Positions 17,608-22,748 of a DNA stretch of 64,000 nucleotides are shown here, one piece after another. Under the pieces are notes generated by a model that searched no databases, had not been told where the DNA came from, and was given only the letters and a program-made list of their open reading frames with translations. Numbering within the stretch: the first letter of the stretch is position 1; each line of letters begins with the position of its first letter. Source of the stretch: an uncultured Verrucomicrobiae bacterium (GTDB lineage: Bacteria; Verrucomicrobiota; Verrucomicrobiia; Chthoniobacterales; UBA10450); NCBI GenBank assembly GCA_963834385.1, contig CAWIBO010000002.1, positions 96,001 to 160,000 on the forward strand. The letters are read 5' to 3'. The position numbers were made by a program, and so were the translations under genes.

Positions 17608-17774
17608 CGTCATCCCGAGCCGCGCAGGCGGCGAGGGACCCCACGATGAAAGGACGGGCTCCGGCCCCTGGTCGGGCGGGGCACAAAGGCGAGAGCGGGG
17701 TGCTGGTCCAGGAGGTTTTGGGGGTGGAACGCCGCACGTTCTTCGCGAGGTCCCTCGCTGCGCTCGGGATGACA
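17608..17774. repeat. Solo (C/T)GTC-tagged palindromic doublet (MITE/REPIN-like, about 165 bp)
   Basis: GTCATCCCGAGCCGCGCAGGCGGCGAGGGACC ... GGTCCCTCGCTGCGCTCGGGATGAC; same ends as the units at 21031 and 21677. Confidence 0.92.
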
Positions 17775-19815: not shown

Positions 19816-21000
19816 ATGCATAAAGAAGCGAAAAAAATCGAGGCGAAGCGACACGATTTCGCCACGCGCACGATTCACGCCGGCCAGGAGCCGGATCCCT
19901 CGACCGGCGCAATCATGACGCCGATTTACCAGACCTCGACTTACGTCCAGGAAAGCCCCGGCCGGCACAAGGGCTTCGACTACGCTCGCTCGATCAACCC
20001 GACCCGGCTGGCTTACGAGAAATGCGTGGCTGACCTCGAGAGCGGCACGCGCGGCTGGGCCTTTGCCTCCGGCCTCGCCGCCATGGCCACCGCCCTCGAT
20101 GCGCTCGACACCGGTTCCCACGTTCTGGTGAGCGACGATCTTTATGGCGGGACCTTCCGGCTTTTCGAGAAGGTCCGGCGCCGCTCCGCCGGTCTCGAGT
20201 TCACTTTCATCGACATGACCGACGCCTCGCAGATCGAGTCGTCCCTAAAACCGAACACGCGCATGCTCTGGGTTGAGACCCCGAGCAATCCGCTCCTGAA
20301 GATCATCGATCTCGAAGCGGTGGCGCAGATTGCGCGGAAACACGGGGCCCTGGCCGTTTCCGACAACACTTTTGCCAGTCCCTGGGCCCAGCGCCCGCTC
20401 GAGCTTGGTTTCGACATGGTCATTCATTCCGCGACCAAATACCTGAACGGGCACTCCGACATGGTCGGGGGCGTGATTGTCGTGGGTGAGAACAAGGAGC
20501 TGGCGGATCAGATTCAGTTCTTGCAGAACGCCGTCGGCGCCGTGGCCGGCCCGTTCGACAGTTTCCTGGCGATGCGCGGCCTGAAAACCCTTTCCATCCG
20601 CATGGAGCGGCATTGCGAGAACGCGGGCGAGATTGCGCGCTGGCTCGAAGGCAACCCGAAACTGGAACGGCTGATTTATCCGGGCCTCGCCGCGCATCCG
20701 CAGCACGCCCTCGCCGGGAAACAGATGCGGGGATTTGGCGGAATGGTCACGCTTGTTCTCAAGACCGACATGGACGGGACCCGCCGTTTTCTCGAGAACA
20801 CCCATCTTTTCTCGCTCGCGGAAAGCCTTGGCGGCGTGGAAAGCCTGGTGAACCACCCGGCCATCATGACCCACGGCGCCGTGCCTCCGGAAACGCGGGC
20901 CAAGCTCGGCATCACCGATTCACTCGTGCGGCTGTCGGTCGGGATCGAGAACGTGGAAGACCTGAAACACGATCTCGAGACGGCGCTCGCGGCCATTTAA
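19816..21000 (+). CDS. Cystathionine gamma-lyase/synthase (Cys/Met metabolism PLP family)
   Basis: PIYQTSTY, ETPSNP, HSATKYLNGHSD, AESLGGVESL, RLSVGIE. Confidence 0.95.
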   Translation: MHKEAKKIEAKRHDFATRTIHAGQEPDPSTGAIMTPIYQTSTYVQESPGRHKGFDYARSINPTRLAYEKCVADLESGTRGWAFASGLAAMATALDALDTGSHVLVSDDLYGGTFRLFEKVRRRSAGLEFTFIDMTDASQIESSLKPNTRMLWVETPSNPLLKIIDLEAVAQIARKHGALAVSDNTFASPWAQRPLELGFDMVIHSATKYLNGHSDMVGGVIVVGENKELADQIQFLQNAVGAVAGPFDSFLAMRGLKTLSIRMERHCENAGEIARWLEGNPKLERLIYPGLAAHPQHALAGKQMRGFGGMVTLVLKTDMDGTRRFLENTHLFSLAESLGGVESLVNHPAIMTHGAVPPETRAKLGITDSLVRLSVGIENVEDLKHDLETALAAI

Positions 21001-21029
21001 TCCGAGCAACGAGAACGCTCACGCGCGCG

Positions 21030-21300
21030 TGTCATCCCGAGCCGCGCAGACGGCGAGGGACCCCACGAAAAAAGGACGGGTATGGCCTCTGTAGCTACGG
21101 GGCGCCAAGACGAAAGCTCGCTGCCGGTTCCGGGTTTTTAAGGGTGGATCGTCGCAAGCTATTCGTGAGGTCCCTCGCTGTGCTCGGGATGACGGTGGGG
21201 CGCGGGGCGCCAAGACGAAAGCCCGCTGCCGGTTCCGGGTTCTTCGGGCGTGGATCGTCGCAAGCTATTCGTGAGGTCCCTCGCTGCGCTCGGGATGACG
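21030..21300. repeat. Left repeat module: arm A (forward), then two B arms (inverted) in an approximately 106-bp tandem duplication
   Basis: A arm starts at 21031; B arms end at 21193 and 21299. Confidence 0.95.
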
Positions 21301-21597
21301 GTGGGGCGCTTGGAAGAGGTCGACGGAAAGGTCGGTCCACCGGGGGTTTTGTGCGTTGACCAGCGCGTTCTTCTTGCTCCTGCGCCAGCCTTTGATTTCT
21401 TTCTCCCGCGCGATGGCGTCACGCGCTTCGTTAAAGACCTCGAAACAGACGAGGCGGTTGAGTCGATAGCTTTTGGTGAAGCCTCGGACGACACCGTACT
21501 GATGCTCCCACACCCGGCGTTCGAGGTTGTTGGTGATCCCGGTATAAAGGACGACCCGGCTCTTATTCGTCATCAGGTAAACGAAGAAGTTCTTCAC
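21265..21597 (-). CDS. Stand-alone small GIY-YIG nuclease (probable GTG start at 21597; ORF open to 21660)
   Basis: FFVYLMTN..RVVLYTGITNNLERRVWEH, GFTKSY, AIAREKEIKGWRRSKK, NPRWTDL. Confidence 0.92.
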   Translation of the reverse strand: MKNFFVYLMTNKSRVVLYTGITNNLERRVWEHQYGVVRGFTKSYRLNRLVCFEVFNEARDAIAREKEIKGWRRSKKNALVNAQNPRWTDLSVDLFQAPHRHPERSEGPHE

Positions 21598-21675
21598 CGT
21601 TGAGTGCCCATTTGGCCGCTTCCCAGTCCTATCCGTGACCGGTGTGGCGGAGAAGCGCAATTACGCCCCGGCGCG

Positions 21676-21933
21676 TGTCATCCCGAGCCGCGCAGACGGC
21701 GAGGGACCCCACGAAAAAAGGACGGGTCCGGCCTTTGTAGCCGCGGGGAGCGCGGGAGGAGTCCGTTGCCGTTTCCGGGTTTTTCGGGGATGGACCGCCG
21801 CAAGCTACTCGTGAGGTCCCTCGCTGCGCTCGGGATGACGTGGGCGCGGGCGCCAGAACGAAAGCTCGCTGCCGGTCCCGGGGTGGACCACCGCAAGCTG
21901 TTCGTGAGGTCCCTCGCTGCGCTCGGGATGACG
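21676..21933. repeat. Right repeat module: arm A plus two B arms; a direct repeat of the left module
   Basis: A arm starts at 21677; B arms end at 21839 and 21932. Confidence 0.95.
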
Positions 21934-21944
21934 GAGGGGGCGCC

Positions 21945-22748
21945 TTACCGGCTTGGAAGTTTCGTCAGCAGTTCGTCGATCTCCTGTTTGAATCCAGGAT
22001 AGGGCCGGGCGCCTTTGATAAACCGAAGCGGCTTGAAAGCACCGTCCGGGGTCGTTGTCCCAAGAAAAAAGGCCGGGGTGCCGGTAACGCCGGCCCGCTT
22101 CCCGTCGGCCAGGTCGCGCCGGACTTTATCGGCATGAGTCCCCTGCGCCAGGCAGCTTTCGAATCGGGCCGAATCCAGCCCAACCGCCGCTGCGTGGGCC
22201 GTCAGGTCGGCCGGAGCGAGGGCCCGCGGATTGGCAAAAAGGGCGTCGTGCATCTCCCAGAATTTTCCCTGGTCCCCGGCGCAGAGCGCGGCTTCGTGCG
22301 CCTTGAACGCCTTTTTGTGGATCGATTCGAGCGGGAAGTTCCGGAAGACATACCGAAGTTTCCCGGTCGCGATGTATTCCGCCTCGAGCTGCGGCAGGGT
22401 CTGTTTCACATGGCGCGCGCAAAAACCGCATTCGTAATCGGTGAACTCCACCAGGGTCAGCGGGGCGGCGGCTTCCCCTTTCGCCGGGGCCCCGGCGAGG
22501 TTCATGGTTACGTCGCGCAACGGGACACCGGCGCGCGGCGGTGCCGGGCGGGGCCTCTCGCGTTCCTGCGCGATCTCGCGGCGCAAAGCGTCCTGCGCCG
22601 TCCGGAATTGTTCGACTTCCTTCCGGAGACGGGCCAGTTCCCGCTGGTTGCCGATCCCGTAGACGGCGGCGACGATGGCTCCCGCCCCCAGCAGAAAGAA
22701 GAGGAAAATCACCCCGACTGGCGAGAGTCCCCGGCTGGCCCTGGCCAT
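21945..22748 (-). CDS. Membrane-anchored DsbA family oxidoreductase
   Basis: [27 protein letters not shown]. Confidence 0.9.

Follow-up and report, generated by a model that had tools for sequence, protein, structure and literature searches.

GTCA-tagged, GA-interrupted hairpins accompany a likely Ssn-family GIY-YIG nuclease gene in Chthoniobacterales

What is a small GIY-YIG nuclease gene doing amid hairpin repeats that are dispersed over the rest of its genome, and are the two connected? The question is raised by the window studied here (the whole 64,000-nucleotide stretch of DNA that was analysed), which comes from an uncultured verrucomicrobial bacterium with an assembly of 2.9 Mb, 89.6% complete. 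A first-pass annotation had proposed that the enzyme recognises, nicks and spreads the hairpins, on the premise that no dedicated enzyme was established for CGTC-tagged REPs. That premise is out of date for cutting, though not for spreading, because the 2025 Ssn paper shows cleavage for four homologues (PMC11893778). As defined there, an Ssn protein belongs to cd10448, consists of one GIY-YIG domain and has CGTC-tagged hairpins on its flanks (Chenal et al. 2025, PMC11893778). SsnA and three homologues cut single-stranded DNA (ssDNA) just upstream of their own hairpin, on one strand only, and SsnA reduces transformation by NTS-bearing DNA; the NTS-ssnA-NTS arrangement is likened to IS200/REP systems, and domestication is suggested (PMC11893778). 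The CGTC-1 REPs of Neisseria are the dRS3 repeats, for which the passages of Di Nocera et al. (2013, PMC3733652) on these families report no dedicated transposase, and dRS3/NTS is the target of SsnA (PMC11893778). The system is thus already published as Ssn, and the new part is a class of GA/GA-interrupted hairpins that the published SRM pattern misses.

The nuclease gene and its flanking modules

The gene (21265..21597, minus strand) encodes 110 amino acids from a GTG start, with an alternative upstream TTG start that would give 131. Its assignment as an Ssn-like single-domain GIY-YIG nuclease gene draws on Pfam, alignment and a structural model. PF01541 (GIY-YIG) is the sole Pfam domain (E 1.8e-14), and an NCBIfam search of the 110-residue protein assigned no family. 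The gene is present in a single copy, the only other GIY-YIG match in the genome being UvrC. With an NTS-flanked homologue of N. gonorrhoeae as a stand-in for SsnA of N. meningitidis, the pairwise comparison gave 33% identity over 90/94 residues, gap-free, at E 2e-20, and the same homologue was recovered at E 2e-11 in a search of a 7.3-Gb plasmid collection. Y7, Y18 and E65 align with the catalytic Y6, Y17 and E64 of SsnA and are invariant in an alignment of eight sequences; Y18 and E65 are invariant across 53. Mutation of the three catalytic residues kills SsnA activity (PMC11893778).

An alignment-based AlphaFold2 model shows one compact GIY-YIG domain (pLDDT 92), whose best fold matches are GIY-YIG domains. 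In the PDB, the UPF0213 protein 1ZG2 is the best match both by sequence and by fold, and the search returned no solved Ssn structure. A tree of 72 rows and 99 columns, from which two short matches and all broken or incomplete genes were excluded, places the nuclease with SsnA-like rows and apart from UPF0213-like rows (99/100); the starred 66-row branch that holds the nuclease and SsnA also takes in, on these 99 columns only, an unrelated long-branch group of nine rows. The six SRM-flanked homologues in the tree group apart (97/91). The nearest named homologues are from Chthoniobacterales/Verrucomicrobiota MAGs, and no relative was found in the viral contigs searched. Judged by homology and catalytic residues, the 110-residue protein is likely a member of the Ssn family. 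As a separate observation, uvrC is split over two frames in G000 (L128:243-1803, C2 near 704 kb), by a frameshift or an assembly error.

The description of a lone gene of about 110 codons between two direct copies of a module with arm order A> <B <B was borne out. The copies (21025..21316 and 21671..21959) lie 646 bp apart, share 81 nt at 93% identity and have a mean column identity of 88%. The six arms around the gene start at 21031(+), 21193(-), 21299(-), 21677(+), 21839(-) and 21932(-), so that the order reads A> <B <B, gene, A> <B <B. Arm A1 (21031..21061, plus strand) is a long-form GTCA hairpin with a 4-bp stem, a GA/GA mismatch and a further 4-bp stem, and A2 (21677..21707, plus strand) is identical to it. 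The minus-strand arms B1 (21170..21193) and B2 (21276..21299) are short forms, B2 having a GCGNAGC loop and overlapping the last 11 codons of the nuclease gene. B3 (21816..21839, minus strand) forms with A2 a 163-bp convergent dimer that is predicted to fold as one long hairpin (z -5.1, beating 200/200 shuffles), and B4 (21909..21932, minus strand) lies 13 bp from the stop codon of a DsbA-like gene. The window contains eight arms in total, and the other two form, as the annotation had also noted, a solo gene-less convergent dimer of the same family (17609..17773, 165 bp; arms 17609(+)/17773(-)). A ninth core match with one mismatch, at 367, has no hairpin.

Both module copies end at an 8-nt match (21309-21316 and 21952-21959) common to the 3' end of the nuclease gene and the 3' end of the DsbA-like gene, at distances of 9 and 19 nt on the 5' side of a B tag. 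The two modules and the match may mark a microhomology junction near the predicted nick, as a single observation that chance could also produce. The left neighbour (19816..21000, plus strand) is a Cys/Met PLP enzyme of the cystathionine gamma-lyase/synthase family, 3' of a cystathionine beta-synthase gene; it is a host gene outside the element. The right neighbour (21945..22748, minus strand) encodes a DsbA-like thioredoxin, is absent at the site in relatives and has no enclosing arms. In the contigs of one DNA sequencing run (0.05 share), positions 21123-21990 were uncovered.

Similar to SsnA of N. meningitidis, the protein is a single GIY-YIG domain of about 100 residues with the same Tyr/Tyr/Glu, its gene sits between oriented (C/T)GTCA(T)-tagged hairpins of a kind scattered over the whole genome, and both arm-gene-arm and dimer-gene-dimer layouts occur. 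By analogy, the enzyme would bind GTCA-tagged hairpins on ssDNA and place its nick slightly 5' of the tag, at a distance of a few bases, with binding and cutting confined to the tagged strand as expected from SsnA biochemistry (PMC11893778). We consider this predicted binding and nicking probable, at close to four chances in five. The mode of action would accordingly resemble Ssn/SRM, and the layout that of RAYT/REP.

Hairpin anatomy and the published SRM pattern

A strict pattern detected 49 arms in the 2.9-Mb genome and 0 in each of three Markov-3 simulations. A slightly looser pattern gave 51 arms in 28 clusters, the six-arm nuclease cluster being the largest; 15 convergent pairs (112-168 bp) occur in 13/28 clusters, and another 13 clusters are single arms. 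The arms had been called palindromic, and they are indeed hairpins but not perfect palindromes: in the predicted fold, GTCA is followed by a 4-bp stem, a GA/GA 2x2 mismatch, a second stem of 2-5 bp with a short loop, and a short tail. The tandem GA/GA pairs would be sheared and stable. Stem position 8 is paired in 51/51 arms (31 C-G, 20 T-A, no mismatch), a tally that counts sequences and not events, as copies of arms are related. Near homologous genes, 99 of 138 GTCAT words have GA at the same position, and 87 of these 99 GA-type tags have a paired stem, with seven different stem sequences among them. The base before GTCA in the 51 arms is C in 27, T in 11, G in 11 and A in 2, and 38 thus begin CGTC or TGTC.

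A mini-hairpin motif is found on the tagged strand in 31/51 arms (28 GCGNAGC and 3 GCGNNAGC) and on the opposite strand in one. Mini-hairpins of the GCGNAGC / GCGNNAGC type are described as very stable in ssDNA, with a sheared G-A loop (Kimoto and Hirao 2026, PMC13037366); they are a structural motif, not a system, and the arms carry the motif at the tip with GA/GA pairs added. The arm structure thus predicts a signal on one strand, as ssDNA.

The published SRM pattern matched none of the 49 genome arms and none of 39 homologue loci. Genome-wide it gave 19 matches, compared with 25-39 in simulations; our own code for the pattern fires at 6/9 loci of the plasmid collection. The arms are therefore not classed as SRM, and the biochemically tested Ssn substrates differ from GA-type arms, since the pattern matches none of these arms. 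The stem here is interrupted by the GA/GA mismatch, unlike that of Ssn/SRM. The host group also differs in being one whose listed homologue, that of Chthoniobacter flavus, comes without SRM enrichment: according to the survey in the Ssn paper, SRM lies beside only 71% of Ssn homologues, and the C. flavus SsnA/cd10448 homologue has a fold value of 0.96 (PMC11893778). Such a value would be expected if the C. flavus targets were GA-type arms, and this class could account for Ssn homologues that seem to have no target. GA-type arms were also found beside homologues in Nitrospirales, Saccharimonadales, Clostridia, Thermomicrobiales, Planktothrix and Spirosoma records. At four further homologue loci (L013, L026 [Acidobacteriaceae], L016 and L088) the flanking GTC-tagged hairpins are longer and match neither pattern, SRM or GA; they are additional arm variants. 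A literature search over full text, the supplements of the Ssn paper and follow-up papers, covering running text, found no description of the GA-interrupted repeat.

Similar to the CGTC-1 to CGTC-4 REPs as characterized in PMC3733652, the arms have an unpaired GTC tag and a short tail, form mostly head-to-head heterodimers, and are intergenic without an adjoining transposase gene. The CGTC REPs described there have stems of 8-9 bp and loops of 4-5 nt, where the arms here have 4 bp, GA/GA and 2-5 bp and are variable in the base that precedes GTCA; the comparison uses the text description, and overlap with CGTC-3/4 is possible.

The boundaries of the arms bear on how they spread. In 37 pairs of dispersed sibling arms whose tails are similar, identity falls to background from the first base 5' of GTCA (0.24, compared with 0.34 in non-siblings, with one exceptional pair; sibling pairs are not independent), while 12 neighbouring arm pairs remain alike for about 7 nt 5' of GTCA. 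No consistent target-site duplication was found at the 15 dimers, which sets them apart from MITE/DDE-type elements with a fixed-length duplication. The data point to dispersed arms as a discrete unit that ends at GTCA and lacks target duplication, with local duplication in addition, and a defined unit is now available in looking for whether Ssn nicks make new copies. Same-direction arm pairs 0.8-1.2 kb apart around small ORFs occur at three places in G000 (C3:426163/426972, C5:533119/534225 and C2:1324432/1325663); they adjoin other simple repeat families of the same genome, and one enclosed ORF is putatively of the HicB type, as judged by eye.

Nuclease clades and arm subtypes in related genomes

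Sixty related genomes were surveyed, 36 in the host family and 24 outside it, with a strong match set at E at most 1e-13; the tallies include the unpublished genomes G002, G007 and G014. A strong nuclease match was found in 23/36 family genomes and 0/24 outside, and the arm pattern in 36/36 and 2/24, respectively. The first-pass annotation had anticipated an enrichment of tagged hairpins around homologues, and the loci examined (38 strong matches, own locus included, and one broken copy, with 11 of 34 weaker rows as controls) agree: a GA-type arm lies within 150 bp of the gene at 39/39 strong loci and at 0/11 weaker GIY-YIG controls. Arms are present on both sides at 27/39 strong loci, and the commonest layout, a tag-outward arm followed by the gene and a second arm, accounts for 18/39.

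Repeat sequence also follows protein phylogeny, as had been foreseen. The family proteins fall into clade I, which includes the 110-residue nuclease, clade II, clade III and some unplaced rows (starred for I and II, 91/88 for III). The class of an arm, as judged by its tail, changes five times on the protein tree, compared with at least 11 times in 300 shuffles, and three arm subtypes follow the three clades, also within single genomes; in all eight genomes with at least two paralogues in the tree, the arms next to these paralogues differ in class. The host genome, with one clade-I gene, has no type II or III arm. The expectation that copy number tracks the nuclease held for each subtype against its own clade (medians of 20 v 1, 23 v 3 and 31.5 v 0 with and without that clade) and not against the other clades (p 0.06-0.79), figures for which subtype patterns were drawn from arms beside the same genes, flanking arms were counted and kin are not independent. 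It does not hold strictly: 13/13 family genomes without a strong match still have arms (1-59), at least five type-I arms occur in 9/29 genomes without a clade-I gene, and no clade-I gene was found in G016 (98% complete), which has 92 type-I arms, in a homologue search that used a one-protein query and may have missed genes. Outside the family, G041 has 10 arms and no nuclease match.

Coincidence, in which ordinary intergenic repeats that are terminator-like or moved by a RAYT/IS200 enzyme happen to lie beside a small gene, could draw on these nuclease-free arms, on three Y1_Tnp matches in the genome, and on the spacer between the lyase gene and aroC, where several relatives carry unrelated inverted repeats and one carries a gene-less dimer. 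It is at odds with the 39/39 versus 0/11 flanking, with clade-specific arms inside single genomes, and with the one-sided mini-hairpin (31/51 arms versus 1). A RAYT as the focus of the repeats was considered and rejected, in line with the annotation, as the three Y1_Tnp/RAYT-like matches lie 73-132 kb from any arm. The coincidence reading is largely refuted, and we give it a very small residual chance. The nuclease and the GTCA-tagged arms are coupled, and this part of the original proposal is supported by the constant flanking, the match of subtype to clade and the lack of a RAYT focus; that the enzyme also spreads its arms is a hypothesis with evidence both ways.

The three clade-specific enzyme-hairpin pairs in one family are substrates for mapping how a protein of 100 residues reads sequence and shape, and are possibly orthogonal ssDNA cutters. 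More speculatively, GA-kinked mini-hairpins may represent a large unrecognised half of the Ssn system, in which distinct nuclease-hairpin pairs coexist in one genome and each nuclease, aided by host repair, copies its own GTCA-bounded arms and dimers to new sites without a transposase; we hold this broad reading only tentatively.

Site history, mobility and other small GIY-YIG families

The annotation had suggested looking for an empty site between the lyase and DsbA genes in relatives, and none was found. Among 91 loci with DsbA homologues, none has the nuclease or aroC and one has a lyase-family match; a lyase-DsbA empty site was thus not to be had, and the lyase-aroC junction was compared in its place. 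In 18/22 family genomes aroC directly follows the lyase gene (other genes follow in two, and contigs end in two), and neither the nuclease nor DsbA lies within 1.5 kb of the lyase gene in any of the 22. The cassette and the DsbA-like gene are therefore both additions at the site, since relatives have lyase-aroC without either, and the cassette is shown to be a recent arrival there. In G002 a gene-less dimer sits between the lyase gene and aroC, and in several relatives the same spacer has unrelated inverted repeats of different families (L059-L079); the spacer is a recurrent landing site for REP-like elements. Close homologues of the DsbA-like gene (21945-22748) are rare in the family, the best being 47% (G029). 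DsbA was considered as cargo of the cassette and rejected, there being no arm between it and aroC.

Elsewhere the gene appears to stay where it is. The 42 nuclease loci fall into 17 flanking contexts; the context of the window locus is unique, and groups of 10, 8 and 5 loci share one, ten clade-III loci having a single context, from which it follows that the gene mostly keeps its place. As a rule a genome has one copy from each clade, and different genera share contexts. Broken copies are frequent, and a genome can have as many as four paralogues whose arms differ. In a comparison of two genomes of one genus, G001 lacks the nuclease at three loci where G036 has it; the G001 counterparts comprise one site without an arm, one with a decayed right arm and one with a fused left-right arm. 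The latter two read as deletions, because arm remnants were kept, and loss is the simpler reading of the first, as its G036 context is common to three genera. At another G036 locus (L117:800-1000), an internally deleted cassette keeps both arms and a 5' gene stub, a natural intermediate between a full cassette and a gene-less dimer.

The arrangement resembles REP/REPIN-RAYT in that a single enzyme gene lies within a cluster of cognate hairpins and gene-less dimers are dispersed (an association described for RAYT in PMC3733652), and in that there are several enzyme-repeat pairs per genome and the gene seldom moves. It differs in the enzyme, a hydrolytic GIY-YIG nuclease in place of HUH or Tyr-linked rejoining chemistry, and in the tag, GTCA and not GTAG. 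RAYT genes move rarely, and their loss leaves repeats behind. Likewise, the gene studied here would move rarely, be mostly inherited in place and often be lost, leaving arms. Now and then a nick would set off recombination or copying through which arms and gene-less dimers multiply, and such an event would have placed the gene copy between two direct module copies; the chances of this step are about even.

In a stronger version, the nuclease would be the equivalent of a transposase, arm-gene-arm the autonomous unit of a selfish element, and the 112-168-bp dimers its actively copied MITE/REPIN-like derivatives. The tag-outward layout at 18/39 loci, the 17 contexts with a unique one in the window, the absence of the cassette at the lyase-aroC junction of relatives, the sharp GTCA boundary of 37 dispersed sibling pairs and the subtype abundance that tracks its own clade all fit this reading. 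However, the 15 dimers show no consistent target-site duplication, one copy per clade per genome is usual with contexts that cross genera, and sister-genome differences resemble deletions. The GTCA boundary is also not the cut site of SsnA, which, on our reading of the Ssn paper, lies about 3 nt upstream of NTS (PMC11893778). GIY-YIG enzymes act by hydrolysis and are not known to rejoin DNA. A selfish element of this kind would need host ligase or recombination, the chemistry being hydrolytic. Active autonomous transposition of the gene is rather unlikely in our view, and the selfish-element reading as a whole is doubtful to a similar degree. If the nuclease does copy its own arms, Ssn would be the mobiliser that CGTC-type REPs have lacked, and RAYT would have a hydrolytic counterpart in it.

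A domesticated host enzyme for ssDNA restriction or genome maintenance, cutting incoming or exposed ssDNA at hairpins, is slightly more plausible, though still well short of even odds; the arms would then spread otherwise, by local duplication or gene conversion. The one role that has been demonstrated in vivo for the family, the lowering of transformation by NTS-bearing DNA through SsnA, is of this kind (PMC11893778). Long residence at fixed sites, tandem local arm duplications and the GC3 of the gene (0.76, resembling the 0.76-0.80 of its neighbours) are in keeping with it. The patchy distribution (23/36), the broken copies and the presence of as many as four paralogues beside different arms are more in keeping with a parasite or weak commensal than with a gene that the host needs, and a host role leaves the constant flanking of the gene by arms unexplained. 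The host-enzyme reading is compatible with an Ssn-family nuclease as the best explanation, and the two are not exclusive.

Other small GIY-YIG genes have hairpins of their own. In family genomes other than that of the window, a second, distant clade of about 92-residue GIY-YIG genes (Pfam), the starred nine-row long branch of the tree (L052, L054, L055 and L118-L123), has no GTCA arms at its nine loci. A different hairpin, with CRCGTG, a GCGAAGC-like loop and TTTACGYG, is present whole or in part at 9/9 of these loci, mostly inverted around the gene; its pattern recurs across the genomes in low numbers, with a maximum of 22 in one genome, against a noisy control, and gene and hairpin may form a nuclease-hairpin system of their own. 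Still other repeated hairpins lie beside UPF0213-like small GIY-YIG genes at L023 and L027 (Actinomycetota) and at L025, which suggests that small GIY-YIG families commonly have hairpin partners.
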